From positions 1-6,654 of IMG/VR virus record IMGVR_UViG_2585427741_000004: a DNA stretch of 6,654 nt. One strand, written 5' to 3'. How positions within the stretch are numbered: the first letter of the stretch is position 1; each line of letters starts with the position of its first letter. The notes beneath the pieces were generated by a model that saw nothing but the letters and a program-made list of their open reading frames with translations, was not told the DNA's origin and searched no databases. Shown piece by piece: positions 1 through 6,654 of the stretch. The stretch is from a virus (Duplodnaviria > Heunggongvirae > Uroviricota > Caudoviricetes). The position numbers were made by a program, and so were the translations under genes.

Positions 1-603
1 GCTTATTACAACATAAGGCAGGAGTTTAATTACTCAACTGAAATTACTGATTTCATGAAAGCGGTATATTTCCTGTATCTCAATCGTCACGGTTACCGTG
101 GTTTATGTCGCTATAACAAGAGCGGGCATTTCAACATTCCCTACGGTAATTATAAAAATCCGTATTTCCCTGAAAAAGAAATTCGCGCATTTGCAGAAAA
201 GGCCCAGCGAGCAACGTTTATCTGCGCCAGCTTTGATGAAACGCTGGCGATGTTGAAGGCGGGGGATGTGGTGTATTGCGATCCGCCGTATGACGGCACG
301 TTTTCCGGTTATCACACTGACGGCTTCACTGAAGATGACCAGTATCACCTGGCATCCGTTCTTGAATATCGATCATCAGAAGGTCATCCGGTCATTGTTT
401 CTAACAGTGACACATCCCTGATCCGTTCGCTGTATCGCAATTTCACTCACCACTACATCAAGGCAAAACGCAGCATCGGCGTGTCAGCTGGCGAGAGTAA
501 ATCTGCAACAGAAATCATTGCTGTTTCCGGGTCGCGCTGCTGGATGGGATTTGATCCTTCGCGTGGCGTGGATAGTTCTGCTGTGTACGAGGTGCGTGTA
601 TGA
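1..603 (+). CDS. dam: DNA adenine methyltransferase (Dam family, GATC N6-adenine MTase), 5'-truncated by the window edge
   Basis: Frame 1 is open from base 1 (no stop before the first Met at 55), so the gene starts upstream of the window. The translation closely parallels E. coli Dam as I recall it: [16 protein letters not shown]...FNIPYG.YK.PYFPEKE...FAEKAQ, then the catalytic motif IV DPPY (nt 277-288), then the HTDGFT and VIVSNSDT blocks. Stop TGA at 601-603. Confidence 0.88.
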
Positions 604-3014
604 GTCATGACGATATGAGCAACTCTAGCGGCTTTAACGAGGCTGCCGCAGCATTTTCATGGAACGGCCCGAAAAAGGCCATTAACCCTTATCTGGATCC
701 GGCGGAAGTTGCGCCGGAGTCTGCACTTTCAAACCTGATCACTCTGTACGCTGCCGATAACGAGCAGGAACAACTGCGCCGCGAGGCACTGAGTGAGCAG
801 GTCTGGGAGCGTTATTTCTTTAATGAATCCCGTGATCCTGTCCAGCGCGAAATGGAGCAGGATAAGCTCATTAGCCGGGCAAAGCTGGCGCATGAGCAGC
901 AGCGTTTTAACCCGGACATGGTCATTCTGGCAGATGTCAGCGCCCAGCCTTCTCATATCAGCAAGCCGCTGATGCAACGTATCGAATACTTCAGCAGCCT
1001 GGGCAGGCCAAAGGCTTATTCCCGCTATTTGCGTGAGACGATTAAGCCATGTCTGGAGCGACTGGATTGTGTACGTGACAGTCAGCTATCTGTTTCTTTC
1101 CGTTTTATGGCAAGCCATCAAGGGCTGGAGGGGCTGCTGATCCTGCCTGAAATGAGCCAGGATCAGGTGAAACGCCTGTCCACCCTGGTAGCAGCGCATA
1201 TGAGCATGTGTCTTGAGGCCGCTTGTGGTGATTTGTACGCCACCGATGACGTTAAGCCAGAAGAAATCCGCAAGACATGGGAAAAGGTGGCTGCGGAAAC
1301 CCTGCGTCTGGATGTTATCCCGCCTGCGTTTGAGAAACTTCGTCGGAAAAGAAACCGCCGCAAACCTGTGCCCTATGAACTCATACCGGGTTCGCTGGCA
1401 CGTATGCTTTGCGCCGACTGGTGGTATCGAAAATTGTGGAAGATGCGTTGCGAATGGCGGGAAGAGCAGTTGCGTGCTGTCTGTCTGGTCAGCAAAAAAG
1501 CATCTCCCTATGTCAGCTATGAAGCAGTGACGCATAAACGTGAGCAGCGCCGCAAGTCGCTGGAGTTTTTCCGTTCTCATGAACTGGTGAACGAAGACGG
1601 AGACACGCTGGATATGGAAGATGTGGTAAACGCCAGCAGCAGCAACCCGGCACATCGCCGCAATGAGATGATGGCCTGCGTTAAAGGTCTGGAGCTTATC
1701 GCGGAAATGCGCGGTGACTGCGCCGTTTTCTACACCATCACCTGTCCGTCACGTTTCCATTCCACGCTCAATAACGGCAGACCAAACCCGACCTGGACAA
1801 ATGCGACGGTAAGACAAAGCAGTGATTATCTGGTCGGCATGTTTGCTGCATTTCGTAAGGCGATGCACAAAGCCGGATTGCGGTGGTATGGCGTGCGGGT
1901 GGCTGAGCCGCATCATGACGGTACTGTGCACTGGCATCTCATGTGCTTCATGCGTAAAAAAGACCGCCGCGCCATCACTGCATTACTGCGTAAGTTTGCC
2001 ATCCGTGAAGACCGCGAGGAACTGGGCAATAACACGGGGCCACGCTTTAAGTCTGAGCTGATTAACCCGCGCAAAGGAACGCCGACAAGCTACATCGCGA
2101 AATACATCAGTAAGAACATTGACGGGCGTGGTCTGGCTGGCGAGATCAGCAAGGAAACGGGTAAATCTCTGCGTGATAACGCTGAATACGTTAATGCCTG
2201 GGCGTCTCTGCATCGTGTTCAGCAATTCCGCTTCTTTGGCATTCCGGGGCGTCAGGCTTACCGTGAACTGCGATTGCTGGCTGGTCAGGCGGCAAGGCAA
2301 CAGGGTGACAAAAAAGCAGGTGCACCGGTACTGGATAACCCGCGCCTTGATGCCATTCTGGCTGCAGCTGATGCTGGTTGTTTTGCCACCTACATCATGA
2401 AGCAGGGCGGCGTACTGGTTCCCCGTAAATATCACCTCATCAGAACCGCTTATGAAATCAACGAAGAGCCGACCGCCTATGGCGATCACGGCATTCGTAT
2501 TTATGGCATCTGGTCACCCATTGCAGAGGGTAAGATCTGCACTCATGCAGTGAAGTGGAAAATGGTTCGTAAGGCCGTTGACGTTCAGGAGGCGGCAGCC
2601 GACCAGGGCGCTTGCGCCCCTTGGACTCGTGGCAATAACTGTCCCCTTGCTGAAAATTTGAACCAACAGGAGAAAGATAAATCAGCTGATGGGGACACCA
2701 GAACGGATATTACCCGCATGGATGACAGGGAGTTGCACGATTACCTGCACAGTATGAACAAAAAAGAGCGCCGGGAACTGGCTGCAAGGTTACGTCTGGT
2801 GAAACCGAAACGGCGTAGAGACTACAAACAGCGAATTACAGACCATCAACGACAGCAGCTCGTCTATGAACTGAAGTCCAGAGGATTTGATGGCAGCGAG
2901 AAAGAGGTCGATTTACTCCTTCGCGGCGGCAGTATTCCATCAGGAGCAGGCTTGCGTATCTTCTATCGGAACCAGCGTCTGAAGGAAGATGATAAGTGGC
3001 GGAACCTGTATTAA
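600..3014 (+). CDS. A: Phage replication initiation endonuclease, P2 gpA-like (HUH rolling-circle initiator), 804 aa
   Basis: 2415-nt ORF. The ATG at 600 overlaps the dam stop (ATGA at 600-603) and has a GAGG Shine-Dalgarno at 589-592 with a 7-nt spacer. The translation carries an HUH-type metal-binding motif, VHWHLMCFM (HWH at nt 1929-1937, residues 444-446), and a paired-tyrosine motif, [12 protein letters not shown] (Tyr at nt 2091-2093 and 2103-2105, residues 498 and 502, Y-x-x-x-Y). These are the hallmarks of phiX174 gpA / P2 gpA superfamily nicking initiators. Size and position match P2/186 gene A. The start could alternatively be the Met at 615. Confidence 0.85.
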
Positions 3015-3083
3015 TTACGCGGGTTAACAATTCGTGCTCTTAATAATACCAGGAATATCAGGCCGATGAACGTAAAAAAACGT

Positions 3084-3110
3084 TTTACATCAGTAAGATT
3101 ATTATATACT
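3084..3110 (+). promoter_or_regulatory. Putative sigma70 promoter for the orf62-dinI cassette (-35 TTTACA at 3084-3089, -10 TATACT at 3105-3110)
   Basis: The -35-like hexamer TTTACA and -10-like hexamer TATACT lie in the AT-rich gap about 60 nt upstream of the orf62 start. The spacer is 15 nt, shorter than the optimal 17. The LexA box overlaps the -10 and the presumed start site. Exact hexamer assignment is uncertain. Confidence 0.35.
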
Positions 3111-3126
3111 GTAAATATAAACAGTG
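3107..3126 (+). promoter_or_regulatory. LexA operator (SOS box)
   Basis: TACTGTAAATATAAACAGTG has perfect CTGT (3109-3112) and ACAG (3121-3124) arms separated by an 8-nt AT-only spacer. It matches the E. coli LexA consensus TACTGTATATATATACAGTA at 17 of 20 positions, and it overlaps the putative -10. Confidence 0.75.
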
Positions 3127-3166
3127 GTTATGTATACAGTATTGCTTTGGTGTCATAGGAGGAAAG

Positions 3167-3355
3167 ATGCAGGACTATTTTTTGGAGTCTTTGAAGCTCC
3201 AGCGCATTGATTTTTTTCTTAAGCTTGTAGCGGCTAGTGAGTGTAGTGATGAAGAGAAGGGGCTGGCTCTGCAGTGGGTTTCTGAATTAACTGATGAACT
3301 CATGGCAAAAATCAGAACCCATGAATACAACCGCTCAATGGATGTCATCAGTTGA
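3167..3355 (+). CDS. Hypothetical small protein (62 aa), first gene of the SOS-controlled cassette
   Basis: ATG at 3167 is preceded by a strong Shine-Dalgarno AGGAGG at 3157-3162 (4-nt spacer). It sits immediately downstream of the LexA box and promoter and is followed 11 nt later by the DinI-like gene. The translation is acidic (SDEEKG, SELTDELMAK) and I recognise no family motif. Confidence 0.55.
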   Translation: MQDYFLESLKLQRIDFFLKLVAASECSDEEKGLALQWVSELTDELMAKIRTHEYNRSMDVIS

Positions 3356-3366
3356 GGTGACTTTTT

Positions 3367-3600
3367 ATGCGCATTGAAATAATGATCGATAAAGAGCAGA
3401 AGATTAGCCAGTCTACCCTGGACGCCCTTGAATACGAGCTTTACCGCAATCTGCGCCCCCTATATCCAAAAACGGTAATTCGCATCCGCAAAGGTAGCTC
3501 TAACGGTGTGGAACTGACCGGACTGCAACTGGACGAAGAAAGGAAGCAAGTGATGAAAATTATGCAGAAAGTGTGGGAAGACGACAGCTGGCTGCATTAA
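3367..3600 (+). CDS. dinI: DinI-family protein (DNA-damage-inducible protein I-like), 77 aa
   Basis: The translation MRIEIMIDKEQ...LDALEYELYRNL...YP...VIRIRKGS...ELTGLQLDEERKQVMKIMQKVWEDDSWLH aligns along its whole length with E. coli DinI as I recall it (MRIEVTIAKT...IDALAGELSRRI...FP...VSVRY...TKEDKQRISEILQETWESADDWFVSE). A GAGGTG Shine-Dalgarno lies about 8 nt upstream. A LexA box upstream is what a DinI-family gene is expected to have. Confidence 0.82.
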   Translation: MRIEIMIDKEQKISQSTLDALEYELYRNLRPLYPKTVIRIRKGSSNGVELTGLQLDEERKQVMKIMQKVWEDDSWLH

Positions 3601-3734
3601 GAAACGTTGCTGGCGTCTGAACTTGCTTCTGGCGTCAGCAAGGTTGAACAACGAGCTGTGCGAGGCGTTAGCTCTGTGGTGCATGTCTATACCGCATGAG
3701 ATCGCATGATCGTTTGAGGATCGTTTTTGCTCAG

Positions 3735-3758
3735 GCCCGCCAGAACTGGCGGGCTTTT
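3735..3758 (+). terminator. Rho-independent terminator closing the orf62-dinI cassette
   Basis: A perfect 9-bp GC-rich stem, GCCCGCCAG (3735-3743) and CTGGCGGGC (3746-3754), with a 2-nt AA loop, followed directly by TTTT (3755-3758). Confidence 0.75.
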
Positions 3759-3803
3759 GCGTAGATCATGCAGGTGCATGAAAACCACTACATAAAGCGG
3801 GCA

Positions 3804-3822
3804 GGCGTGGCGGGGATACGAG
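3804..3822. other. Candidate cos (cohesive end) site of a P2/186-like phage
   Basis: GGCGTGGCGGGGATACGAG is a 19-nt GC-rich motif in the non-coding gap between convergent terminators, exactly where P2-family phages place cos (between the right-end accessory genes and Q). From memory the P2 cohesive end is GGCGAGGCGGGGAAAGCAC and the 186 end begins GGCGTGGCGGGGA. The first 13 nt here match that pattern. The comparison relies on recalled sequences and was not computed. Confidence 0.5.
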
Positions 3823-3910
3823 CGCGCGCAACGGGGTAAAATGGCCAAAATCCGGCACAGCCTCTGGCCCGCTGGCGGCCTCATTTAGTGGAGGGGGGGA
3901 GATGTCAGGG

Positions 3911-3947
3911 CAAAAAGAAACGCCCCGCAGAATGCTGCTGAGGCGTT
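3911..3947 (-). terminator. Putative rho-independent terminator downstream of the portal gene (- strand)
   Basis: On the - strand, a hairpin with AACGCC / GGCGTT outer arms (+ coordinates 3919-3947, with an inner GCAG/CTGC stem) is followed by a T-rich run TCTTTTT (the + strand A-run at 3911-3918). It lies about 36 nt past the Q stop codon. The stem is imperfect. Confidence 0.45.
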
Positions 3948-3982
3948 GTGAGAGTTGGTCGGTTATTGATGTTATGAGTATG

Positions 3983-5023
3983 TCAGCTTCGTTTGCCCTT
4001 AAGTCCTAAGTCATAGGCTTCAAAACGGATAACCTCTTCATCCAGCCAGTCATTCAGCTCCTGCAGTCGCTTTTGCAGGGGCATCAGTTCATTGCGGACG
4101 AAGACACGGCTCGCTTTTTCCACATCCCCAAAGCCGCCAGTGTTGTTGGGAATGATGCCCATCATTTGCGGCGGTACGCGGTGAGCCGCCATCATGTCAT
4201 CGCGGCTGACGTTCTTGATGTTCAGAAATTCATCCTTCGCCGCGACTTCCGACAACGGGATAATCTGAATGCCATCTTTTTTGCCGTTAGGCGAGTACAT
4301 AAACAGGTTGCGGAAGTTGCCCGGTCCTTTAGCACTTTTCATTGCCTTGCGGATGTTGTTCACATCCTCCTGGTTCTGTGCGGCGTCGGTCATGTACATG
4401 ATGAAGCCTGCGTGGCTGCCGTTAATGTAATACTTGCGGCGGAACAGCGTGGCGGATTCGTTGAGCAGAGCTGACGGAATGGCAGAAAGGTAACCCGGCA
4501 GACCATAAATCTCCTGGTTGATATCCGGCTCCATCAGGTGGAAGACGTTACCTTTTGTGAACTGATACGGCTGTGTCGTCAGGCTGTATTGCACAAACCA
4601 GTATGTTTCAAGGTCAAGCCCGCGTCGGGTGTATTTTGCCAGTGCAGGCTCCAGCGAAATAACTTCACCAAAGCGGTTCGTGCGTTTCTCCAGGTAGGCG
4701 TTACCAAAAACCAGATAGTCCTGCACAAAACGGGTAAATGCCTGCTGGCTGAGAAGGCGATGTGGAATATAGGTACTGCTGATAATGTCACGCTTAACAC
4801 TGATCGGGGAGCTGTGGTGCACGGCGGCGCGGAAGGTGCGCGCCAGTCCGTCAAAGCTGACGGGCGGCTCATACCAGCGATCCATCTGTACGCATTCCAC
4901 ATAGTCCAGCAGTTCGCGGCGGTCCAGTACAGGAATGGGATCACCAAAGCTGAAAGCCTCCGCAACGGGTTTTTTAGTTTCTTCTGCAGTTACGGTTTCG
5001 CCTGGCGCGATATGTTCTTTCAT
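3983..5023 (-). CDS. Q: Phage portal protein (P2 gpQ-like), about 346 aa
   Basis: Large - strand ORF whose size and position (immediately downstream of the large terminase gene, next to cos) match the portal gene Q of P2-family phages. The likely start is the ATG at 5023-5021 (MKEHIAPGE...). The ORF track begins one codon upstream at a TTG. The start overlaps the terminase stop (ATGA). Confidence 0.78.
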   Translation of the reverse strand: MKEHIAPGETVTAEETKKPVAEAFSFGDPIPVLDRRELLDYVECVQMDRWYEPPVSFDGLARTFRAAVHHSSPISVKRDIISSTYIPHRLLSQQAFTRFVQDYLVFGNAYLEKRTNRFGEVISLEPALAKYTRRGLDLETYWFVQYSLTTQPYQFTKGNVFHLMEPDINQEIYGLPGYLSAIPSALLNESATLFRRKYYINGSHAGFIMYMTDAAQNQEDVNNIRKAMKSAKGPGNFRNLFMYSPNGKKDGIQIIPLSEVAAKDEFLNIKNVSRDDMMAAHRVPPQMMGIIPNNTGGFGDVEKASRVFVRNELMPLQKRLQELNDWLDEEVIRFEAYDLGLKGKRS

Positions 5024-6654
5024 CAAAAAATCTCCACAATATTGCTGGTATTGGCGGACTCGCCCTGCAGCGGTTCGTTAAACAGTGCGTGCATTGTTGC
5101 CCAGGCCAGATCGGCATGGCTGGCTTCTTCGCTGCGGCTGGCTTCATAGGTCGGGCGGTTGCCACTGGCAGTGGTAGCGCGACGGATTGCCATAAATGAC
5201 TGCGCAATGTCGGTGTGCCCGGCGTCAAACTCCAGACGGCGGTGGCTGATAATGTCGTAGGCCTTGAGTACCAGGGCGTTTTTAACGTTGGGGTTGTAGA
5301 CAAACTCCCTGACGGCAGGAAAAAACGCTTTCACGTTCTCGTAAACCCCGTGACCGACGCCGGTCGAGTCGATGCCGATATAGGTCACGTTGTACTGTTC
5401 GGTCAGTTTTTTGATGGCGTCAGCCTGGGCGCGGAAGTCCATTCCGCGCCACTGGTGACGCTCAAGAATGCGGAACTTACCGCCCGGCACGGCTGGCGGC
5501 GCCACCACCACGCATCCGGCGCTGTCGCCGTTCTGCGTACCTTTCGCCGGGTCATAACCGATCCACACTTCGCGCCAGCCAAACGGGCGCAGGGCCAGTG
5601 CATGAAAGTCGGTCCAGACTTCCCAACTGTCCACCATGCACGCCTGCAGCTCGCTGAGTGGGAACACAGACGCGAGATCGTCCACGAACTCACACATCAG
5701 CAGGTTCTGGTATTCGTCCGGGCTGTACTCCATGCGCAACTGGTCGAGGTCGAACAGGTTACAGCCGCCGCGCACCGCATCTTCCACAGTGACTATCTGG
5801 CGGTACTGCCCGTCTGCGCACAGCAGGCCGGGGGCCAGATTGCTGTGGGACCGGTCGATGTCCACCTTATCGGCTTTGTTGCGCCCTCGGTTGAACAGCG
5901 CACCGGACCAGAACGGATAAGCACTGTGTGTCAGGCTGGATGGCGTGGAAAAATAGGTTTGTCGCCATTTTTTGTGAATAGCCATACCGGAAGCCACTTT
6001 GCGCAGCTCCTGGAATTTCGGTATCCAGAAATATTCATCCAGATACAGGTTGCCGTGGTAACTCTGGGCCGTGCGGGCATTGGTGCCGAGGAAGTACAGC
6101 GTGGCCCCGTTAGGAAGCACCATCGGATCGCCTTTCAGCTCCACCTCCACTTCTTTGGCGAAGTCGATGATGTACTGCTTAAAGACGTGGGCCTGAGCCT
6201 TGCTGGCGGAAAGGAAAATCTGGTTACGCCCGGTTAGCAGGGCGTCAATCAGGGCTTCACGGGCAAAATAGAAGGTCGCACCGATCTGGCGTGACTTCAG
6301 CAGGTTGCGGATGCGGTTGGTTTTTCCGGCTTCCCACCAGTGGCGCTGGTAGTTGAACATGGAGGAATGGAAGATTTCTTCCAGCTTCTCAATCTGTTCA
6401 TCGGTGAAAACGTTCTTTTCCGGCTGACGACGCGGGCCTTTGTTGCGGTTGGCGACGTTAGGGTTTAAGTCGGCTTCGTTGCCGCCATTGTTAAACTTGC
6501 CGATCCGCGCATGGCGCTCCGACTGGCGCGCCAGCAGGTCAATCTCTTTGAAATCTTTCCCTTCTTTGTGCTCCTTCATAATGAGCTGGCAGTAGCGTGC
6601 GGCGGTGGTGAGCTGCATCTGATCCAGCGGCCCATAGTCACCCCACTTGTCGCG
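5023..6654 (-). CDS. P: Terminase large (ATPase) subunit, P2 gpP-like, N-terminus beyond the window
   Basis: The - strand frame is open from the window edge (6654) to a TGA stop at 5025-5023. The 12 codons upstream of the first in-window Met (6618) contain no stop, so the true start lies outside the window. Gene order P then Q on the same strand, with coupled stop/start, matches the P2 late operon. The assignment rests on size, synteny and overall resemblance to P2-family terminases; I did not verify a Walker motif. Confidence 0.75.
   Translation of the reverse strand, partial: RDKWGDYGPLDQMQLTTAARYCQLIMKEHKEGKDFKEIDLLARQSERHARIGKFNNGGNEADLNPNVANRNKGPRRQPEKNVFTDEQIEKLEEIFHSSMFNYQRHWWEAGKTNRIRNLLKSRQIGATFYFAREALIDALLTGRNQIFLSASKAQAHVFKQYIIDFAKEVEVELKGDPMVLPNGATLYFLGTNARTAQSYHGNLYLDEYFWIPKFQELRKVASGMAIHKKWRQTYFSTPSSLTHSAYPFWSGALFNRGRNKADKVDIDRSHSNLAPGLLCADGQYRQIVTVEDAVRGGCNLFDLDQLRMEYSPDEYQNLLMCEFVDDLASVFPLSELQACMVDSWEVWTDFHALALRPFGWREVWIGYDPAKGTQNGDSAGCVVVAPPAVPGGKFRILERHQWRGMDFRAQADAIKKLTEQYNVTYIGIDSTGVGHGVYENVKAFFPAVREFVYNPNVKNALVLKAYDIISHRRLEFDAGHTDIAQSFMAIRRATTASGNRPTYEASRSEEASHADLAWATMHALFNEPLQGESANTSNIVEIF

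Follow-up and report, generated by a model that had tools for sequence, protein, structure and literature searches.

A probable two-protein form of the Tum antirepressor encoded in the SOS operon of a Fels-2-like prophage

Introduction

Two short open reading frames follow each other behind a LexA box and downstream of a gene A homologue in a prophage related to coliphage 186. Do they encode the antirepressor Tum as two proteins, are they a tum gene disrupted by a frameshift, or do they pair an unrelated small protein with a DinI homologue? These three options had been put forward in an earlier note on this DNA. In 186, Tum (146 aa) is expressed from the p95 SOS operon and is annotated in the phage record as 'inhibits CI DNA binding'. 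It binds the repressor CI and blocks operator binding, and induction depends on the cleavage of LexA (summarised in PMC7708051). Tum resembles an antirepressor fused to DinI (PMC3121763), the N-terminal antirepressor-type region being followed by a DinI-like region.

We consider it very probable that this Fels-2-like, 186-type prophage makes Tum as two proteins, from an SOS operon repressed by LexA. A split tum as such is already known. The record of phage PSP3 annotates two genes, tumA ('similar to 5' end 186 tum; UV induction of prophage') and tumB ('similar to dinI and 3' end of 186 tum'), and a passage of Lemire, Figueroa-Bossi and Bossi (2011, PMC3121763, citing Bunny et al. 2002) describes tum of Fels-2 and PSP3 as divided in two by a stop codon. 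Hence, the present finding is a correct rediscovery of that arrangement. A literature search for tumA/tumB returned no relevant paper. Two things are added here. One is solid statistical support that the widespread protein family phrog_698, which is without a Pfam or NCBIfam model, is homologous to TumA and the N-terminus of Tum, which amounts to a correction of its annotation. The other is a testable question on antirepressor specificity, posed by a conserved ORF1 and diverged CI repressors.

Genomic context

The window, i.e., the whole stretch of DNA analysed, is the complete contig JOQG01000070.1 (6654 bp), and its source is a Fels-2-like prophage of the P2/186 family (Peduoviridae). The ORF call places ORF1 at 3167-3355 (plus strand, ATG start, 62 aa) and ORF2 at 3367-3600 (plus strand, ATG start, 77 aa). 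The two are separated by 11 nt (3356-3366), lie in different reading frames, and add up to 139 aa, as the earlier note had described them. The pair starts 152 nt downstream of a gene A homologue at 600-3014 (Pfam Phage_GPA, E 3.5e-128), which confirms the proposed 186-like position. Along the contig come dam, A, ORF1, ORF2, a terminator, and a cos-like site, followed by the portal and terminase genes on the opposite strand. The cos-like sequence GGCGTGGCGGGGA starts at 3814 and may be compared with 186 cos, GGCGTGGCGGGGAAAGCAT. In this P2/186-family genome, the pair is thus found between replication gene A and cos, the location of the 186 Tum system.

At 95-97% identity, the region 2950-3800 is shared with Escherichia phage 500465-1, vB_EcoM-813R9, Fels-2, RE2010, and numerous prophages of Klebsiella. 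Of the 5426 complete E. coli genomes in the collection searched, 1321 (about a quarter) contain related DNA. An Rfam scan of the whole window found no RNA family.

Fels-2 of Salmonella Typhimurium LT2 carries essentially the same locus (STM2728 and STM2726.1), with the same promoter, LexA box, and position after gene A. STM2728 is 98% identical to ORF1, from which it differs by one residue, and the Fels-2 DinI-family protein, whose gene is tied to PSP3 TumB in the Fels-2 record, is 99% identical to ORF2. The differences are a spacer of 10 nt instead of 11 nt, a gene A with only about 84% DNA identity to that of the window, and two extra genes between the DinI gene and cos, namely STM2726 (in the position of orf97) and STM2723.1, both missing in the window. 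Phage 186 also carries orf97 downstream, and the window is without it.

Promoter, LexA box, and other control elements

Upstream of ORF1, a p95-like SOS promoter is predicted on the plus strand at 3084..3112, consisting of a -35 element TTTACA (3084-3089), a spacer of 17 nt, and a -10 element TACTGT (3107-3112). In the annotated p95 promoter of 186, the -10 TACTGT likewise falls within the LexA site. A promoter scanner with consensus thresholds called no promoter at the locus because the -10 element matches the consensus at just three of six positions.

The LexA (SOS) box TACTGTAAATATAAACAGTG spans 3107..3126, without assigned strand. Its core CTGT-N8-ACAG (3109-3124) is perfect and is the sole exact match to this motif within the window. 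The box overlaps the p95-like promoter, its position equals that of the annotated LexA site of 186 and of the box of PSP3, and it is kept in ten relatives despite diverged flanks. At the level of sequence, the LexA control claimed in the earlier note is therefore upheld by a perfect box in a p95-like layout, and LexA would be expected to bind here. A second, weak LexA-like element CAGTGGTTATGTATACAGTA at 3122..3141, also without strand, overlaps the first box. Its right half is good and its left half poor, and the right half, TATACAGT, is preserved in diverged relatives.

Each of the two genes has its own translation signals. A Shine-Dalgarno sequence AGGAGG, read from the sequence at 3157..3162 (plus strand), precedes ORF1 and is AGGAGG in 10/10 relatives. 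That of ORF2, GAGGTGA at 3354..3360 (plus strand), overlaps the ORF1 stop codon TGA (3353-3355). A purine-rich tract stands before the ORF2 ATG in all relatives compared, though the length of the spacer and the ORF1 stop codon vary.

A probable intrinsic terminator follows at 3735..3758 (plus strand), with a 9-bp GC-rich stem (GCCCGCCAG / CTGGCGGGC) and then TTTT. It is proposed from the predicted RNA fold of 3596-3775 together with reading of the sequence, and was overlooked by the scanner because the tail holds just four T. The scanner flagged a 6-bp hairpin at 3344-3361, which we rejected, as diverged relatives do not conserve it.

Two intact genes

The second option, a broken tum, comes in two versions. 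The gene could be disrupted by a frameshift, either as a pseudogene or through an assembly error, or a 139-aa fusion protein could be produced by programmed frameshifting on a T-run at the junction. Some features of the locus fit this option, as the ORFs are 11 nt apart in different frames and the spacer holds a TTTTT run, with T5 in the window where most relatives show T4. Comparison with other genomes speaks for two genes. In ten relatives (about 78-97% DNA identity), ORF1 always has 62 codons and ORF2 always 77, while the spacer measures 10, 11, 12, or 13 nt, so that each of the three possible frame relations is represented. ORF1 ends in TGA, TAG, or TAA. In PSP3, which also has a two-gene split Tum after gene A and behind a LexA box, the two genes share a frame and are 3 nt apart. 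Invariant lengths on either side of a spacer that varies from 10 to 13 nt argue against a frameshifted tum as well as against a programmed fusion. The ORF1/ORF2 arrangement is also present in two other assemblies.

Both genes are under purifying selection, with dN/dS values against the relatives of 0.03-0.09 for ORF1 and 0.03-0.10 for ORF2. Besides, ORF2 has an ATG and a Shine-Dalgarno sequence of its own. The junction had been named as a place to look for a frameshift-prone site. The T-run exists, but it lies 3' of the ORF1 stop codon, and TGA codons at 3322-3324 and 3358-3360 shut the ORF2 frame. Thus, a single ribosomal shift cannot yield the fusion. Taken as a whole, we give almost no credence to a broken or frameshifted tum, and the natural two-protein version is preferred.

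ORF2 is a TumB-like member of the DinI family

ORF2 matches the Pfam family DinI (PF06183) along the entire profile (positions 1-63 of 63; E 1.9e-22; 79.8 bits, cut-off 24.2), and its PDB match is DinI, 1GHH (E 6e-6). It aligns directly with residues 71-145 of 186 Tum (41% identity, E 3e-24) and is 78% identical to PSP3 TumB and 30% identical to E. coli DinI. Hence, the DinI-like region of the 186 Tum system is present in the window as a separate protein. The statement in the earlier note that Tum has DinI-like character holds for its C-terminal half (residues 71-145) and not for the rest of the protein.

Against the NCBIfam equivalog of chromosomal DinI, NF007893, ORF2 scores 41.7 bits, and the cut-off is 111. 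As it falls below this cut-off, we regard ORF2 as a phage DinI-like paralogue of the TumB type and not as an orthologue of host DinI. The PHROG profile phrog_189 has 151 positions, of which ORF2 covers only 71-148, and we conclude from this that the profile was built on full-length Tum.

The 186 record notes an internal GTG start at codon 71 of tum, giving a 'truncated Tum' that 'modulates SOS induction', and this codon aligns with M1 of ORF2. On the annotation of the record, 186 too can make its DinI-like half separately. Apart from this, 186 fuses both parts in one frame through a linker of about 25 residues, whereas the window has two genes.

ORF1 is a remote homologue of the N-terminal half of Tum

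The homology of ORF1 is less apparent. BLASTP of ORF1 against 186 Tum gave no alignment, so profile methods were needed. ORF1 shares only about 20% identity with either the N-terminus of Tum or PSP3 TumA, and searches of Pfam, NCBIfam, and PDB sequences gave no match for ORF1. Its relatives are called 'hypothetical protein' in databases and are sometimes mislabelled 'levan regulatory protein'. These findings are what the third option would predict, in which ORF1 is an unrelated small protein that stands by chance before a phage DinI gene and the operon has no Tum-like antirepressor.

Profile comparisons point the other way. ORF1 belongs to the PHROG family phrog_698 (E 3.6e-38), and the first 70 residues of 186 Tum match the same family (E 6.7e-6) at positions 7-44 of both. 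Against phrog_1993, the family of PSP3 TumA, ORF1 gives a borderline score (E 0.0022, 18.4 bits), and a third family, phrog_8554, is matched by both ORF1 (2.4e-8) and the Tum N-terminus (3.3e-12). PSP3 TumA (60 aa) is only 22% identical to ORF1 and is much nearer than ORF1 to the 186 Tum N-terminus. We regard phrog_698 as a sister family of phrog_1993.

The alignment of the two families depended on the diversity of the ORF1 profile. A first hhalign comparison with a low-diversity profile (all members >80% identical) gave a probability of 29% (E 5.9e-4). An exhaustive profile search of the ORF1 family against 1.84 billion representatives yielded 86 matches (50% identity clustering), and with the distant members from this search added to the profile, the probability rose from 29% to 95.9% (E 6.3e-9). 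The alignment is ungapped and in register, placing ORF1 residues 3-44 on Tum residues 3-44. On the Tum side, the alignment comprised Tum N-termini, stand-alone 'Tum protein' homologues, and PSP3 TumA. An intermediate sequence agrees with this result: P0266, a family member that bridges the two, shares 42% identity with ORF1 and 41% with Tum residues 5-43 (BLASTP E 7e-11).

The two halves also fit together as expected. The conceptual fusion of ORF1 and ORF2 is collinear with Tum 7-145 with a single gap of 8 residues, which lies at the junction, and tblastn with the whole of Tum spans both genes in the relatives that have them in frame (H98, H99). With the agreement of the PHROG cross-matches and the synteny and promoter layout shared with 186 and PSP3, the profile-profile result makes a chance pairing with an unrelated small protein very improbable, and this option from the earlier note is not retained. 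Instead, ORF1 is remotely homologous to the N-terminal half of Tum, judged by profiles and intermediates that cover only residues 3-44, within the antirepressor-type region (residues 1 to about 45), and is the putative TumA-like, antirepressor half of a split Tum. The alignment to Tum that had been proposed as a check thus turned out directly for ORF2 and through profiles and intermediates for ORF1.

ORF1 homologues number 482 at cluster level. Almost all of the 86 matches from the exhaustive search are stand-alone proteins of 50-100 aa, and among these 86 from 1.84 billion representatives, no ORF1-like N-terminus was found on a protein of Tum length (~146 aa). Hence, the ORF1 subfamily was not found fused. 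An AlphaFold2 model (mean pLDDT 89) predicts that ORF1 folds into two helices, residues 2-23 and 28-61, arranged as a hairpin. In this model, the region shared with Tum would reach from helix 1 through the turn, which bears the conserved Cys26, to the middle of helix 2.

The repressor of a sibling prophage is of the 186 CI type

The repressor gene lies outside the window. We therefore read it from contig L006 of a sibling assembly, which extends further upstream and matches the whole window (6654 bases) at 99.94% identity. The immunity repressor, encoded at L006:6570-7202, has 210 aa with the domains PF07022 (Phage_CI_repr) and PF16452 (Phage_CI_C), and aligns over its length with 186 CI at 30% identity. 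A Peptidase_S24 domain, which would provide self-cleavage, was not found in this protein. The nearest E. coli relative also has a repressor of the 186 CI type, and the window-type CI is 100% identical to the CI of Salmonella phage RE2010. The earlier note had suggested checking whether the repressor resembles 186 CI, as a switch that depends on an antirepressor would require. The sibling repressor, being of the 186 type and having no Peptidase_S24 domain, answers to this description.

Proposed mechanism

The mechanism proposed below is transferred from 186 (PMC7708051 and the 186 record) and PSP3. The window shares with 186 the position, the layout of the LexA promoter, and the domain order, and its sibling prophage has the non-cleavable type of CI. 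In the uninduced state, LexA would sit on the box that covers the -10 element of the promoter and keep both genes off. Upon DNA damage, LexA would be cleaved and a bicistronic mRNA transcribed. ORF1, as a 62-aa helical hairpin, would then bind the 186-type CI, which is incapable of self-cleavage, and keep it off its operators. With CI off the operators, the lytic promoter would fire and the prophage would be induced. This prophage would thus sense damage through a LexA-controlled antirepressor and not through self-cleavage of its repressor, which is of relevance for predicting prophage induction by antibiotics and other SOS inducers.

ORF2, by analogy with DinI, may act on RecA filaments and tune the SOS signal, and would not itself be an antirepressor. 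This is the weakest step of the mechanism because induction of the Gifsy prophages did not change measurably when their dinI homologues were deleted (PMC3121763). The Gifsy-1/2/3 dinI-gfoA/gftA operons are similar to the present one in that they are repressed by LexA and have one gene for a small antirepressor and another for a DinI homologue (PMC3121763). They differ in that dinI comes first, the reverse of the order in the window, and in that these prophages are lambdoid and have another repressor family.

Conservation of ORF1 and divergence of CI

Counterparts of ORF1 with 98-100% identity are encoded by Fels-2, Kp4845-2, the ST15-OXA48phi14.1 prophage, and an E. coli O177:H21 prophage. For 4LV2017, the comparison was of DNA only and gave 95.9% identity over the ORF1-ORF2 region. 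The CI repressors of the same phages and prophages are heteroimmune. Compared with the window-type CI, identity is 58.9% for ST15-OXA48phi14.1, 58.5% for Fels-2, 52.9% for Kp4845-2, 51% for E. coli O177:H21, and 40.4% for 4LV2017. ORF1 is thus far more conserved than its presumed CI targets (40-59% identical), unlike what is expected of an antirepressor and a repressor that co-evolve tightly. The diverged repressors nevertheless share a near-invariant block in the N-terminal domain (about residues 37-74 of the CI alignment; ...FPA(D/E)W(V/I)IQCALETG.SL.WL.TGQG...) and a few C-terminal motifs.

The invariance of ORF1 may also be read differently, with a target other than CI. ORF1 would then be a true relative of the Tum N-terminus with another job, acting on a conserved host or phage target or as a helper of the DinI-like protein, and induction would proceed through another factor. 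The contrast between ORF1 and CI identities would suit such a role, as would the restriction of Tum similarity to residues 3-44. On the other hand, the operon keeps its position, its LexA control, and its association with a non-cleavable 186-type CI, and the conserved CI segment could serve as a common target. In addition, the antirepressor activity of PSP3 is assigned to the upstream gene in a passage of PMC3121763 that cites a personal communication of G. E. Christie. Antirepressors that act across prophages and on heteroimmune repressors are documented as well, in the Gifsy and Fels-1 prophages (PMC3121763). We therefore regard another job for ORF1 as unlikely and keep to its role as an antirepressor of CI.

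For ORF1 as an antirepressor, near-invariance across prophages whose CIs are 40-59% identical means that the surface it recognises on CI could be conserved and not immunity-specific. The conserved N-terminal block or the conserved C-terminal motifs are candidates for this surface. We suggest tentatively, and with some doubt, that the Fels-2-type TumA is an antirepressor of broad specificity. Within the locus, experiments might be worthwhile only on this contrast between a conserved ORF1 and diverged CIs. If the specificity is broad, one SOS-induced copy of ORF1 would cross-induce heteroimmune P2-like prophages in the same cell.

Conservation of ORF1 and divergence of the CI repressors

ORF1 (3167-3355, + strand) is 98-100% identical among the relatives, and the 186-type CI repressors of the same relatives share only 40-59% identity with the window-type CI. 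The CI loci compared were those at L006:6570-7202 (the sibling contig, which carries the window-type CI), at L004:6166-6798, and in L017-L021. For 4LV2017, the comparison was limited to the DNA of the ORF1-ORF2 region, which is 95.9% identical. The compared CIs have in common a near-invariant block, FPA(D/E)W(V/I)IQCALETG.SL.WL.TGQG, as well as a few C-terminal motifs. Conservation of ORF1 alongside diverging CIs suggests either an antirepressor that is not immunity-specific or a recent mosaic exchange.

The homologues of ORF1 are named "hypothetical protein" in the public records, and some of them "levan regulatory (domain) protein." Neither Pfam nor NCBIfam holds a model for them. Unlike these proteins, the stand-alone homologues (63-78 aa) of the N-terminal half of 186 Tum are called "Tum protein" by NCBI. 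The naming of the ORF1 homologues is an annotation gap.

LexA elements upstream of ORF1

A second, weak LexA-like element, CAGTGGTTATGTATACAGTA, lies at 3122-3141 and shares a few bases with the main LexA box (3107-3126). Its right half, TATACAGT, is kept in diverged relatives, and the element may serve to bind a second LexA dimer. In Klebsiella phage ST15-OXA48phi14.1 (L015), the main box ahead of that phage's ORF1 reads ...AAACATTG in place of ...AAACAGTG, a change from CAG, otherwise invariant in the right half, to CAT. As judged from this substitution, LexA control of the operon may be weakened in this phage.

Hairpins at the ORF1-ORF2 junction and behind ORF2

At the junction (3344-3366), the 3' end of ORF1 and the Shine-Dalgarno sequence of ORF2 form a 6-bp hairpin (GTCATC...GGTGAC), which might couple the translation of ORF2 to that of ORF1. 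Diverged relatives do not conserve this hairpin. The T-run on its 3' side is T5 in the window versus T4 in most close relatives.

Immediately 3' of the ORF2 stop codon, a long near-perfect hairpin spans 3603-3645, with no T-run behind it. Its position is that of the partial terminator t95a of 186, and the predicted RNA folding of 3596-3775 is far better than that of shuffled sequences (z = -3.6).

Variable cargo site behind ORF2

The segment from the DinI-like gene to cos (window 3600-3983; L002:3647-6489; L009 and L011) is a variable cargo site. Here, Fels-2 carries two extra genes, STM2726 (at the position of 186 orf97) and STM2723.1, Cartapus two small ORFs, SEN8 a DNA-binding protein on the opposite strand, and some E. 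coli relatives an HNH endonuclease or IS26; none of this cargo is present in the window. The probable cos site of the window, GGCGTGGCGGGGATACGAG, lies at 3814-3832 and, over the first 13 positions, agrees base for base with the 19-nt cohesive end annotated in 186, GGCGTGGCGGGGAAAGCAT.

Contig ends

The window makes up the whole of a short contig, with 1-603 and 5023-6654 as its two end regions. The left end truncates a Dam-like methylase gene and the right end the terminase gene. The methylase gene shares 4 nt with gene A (ATGA, 600-603).
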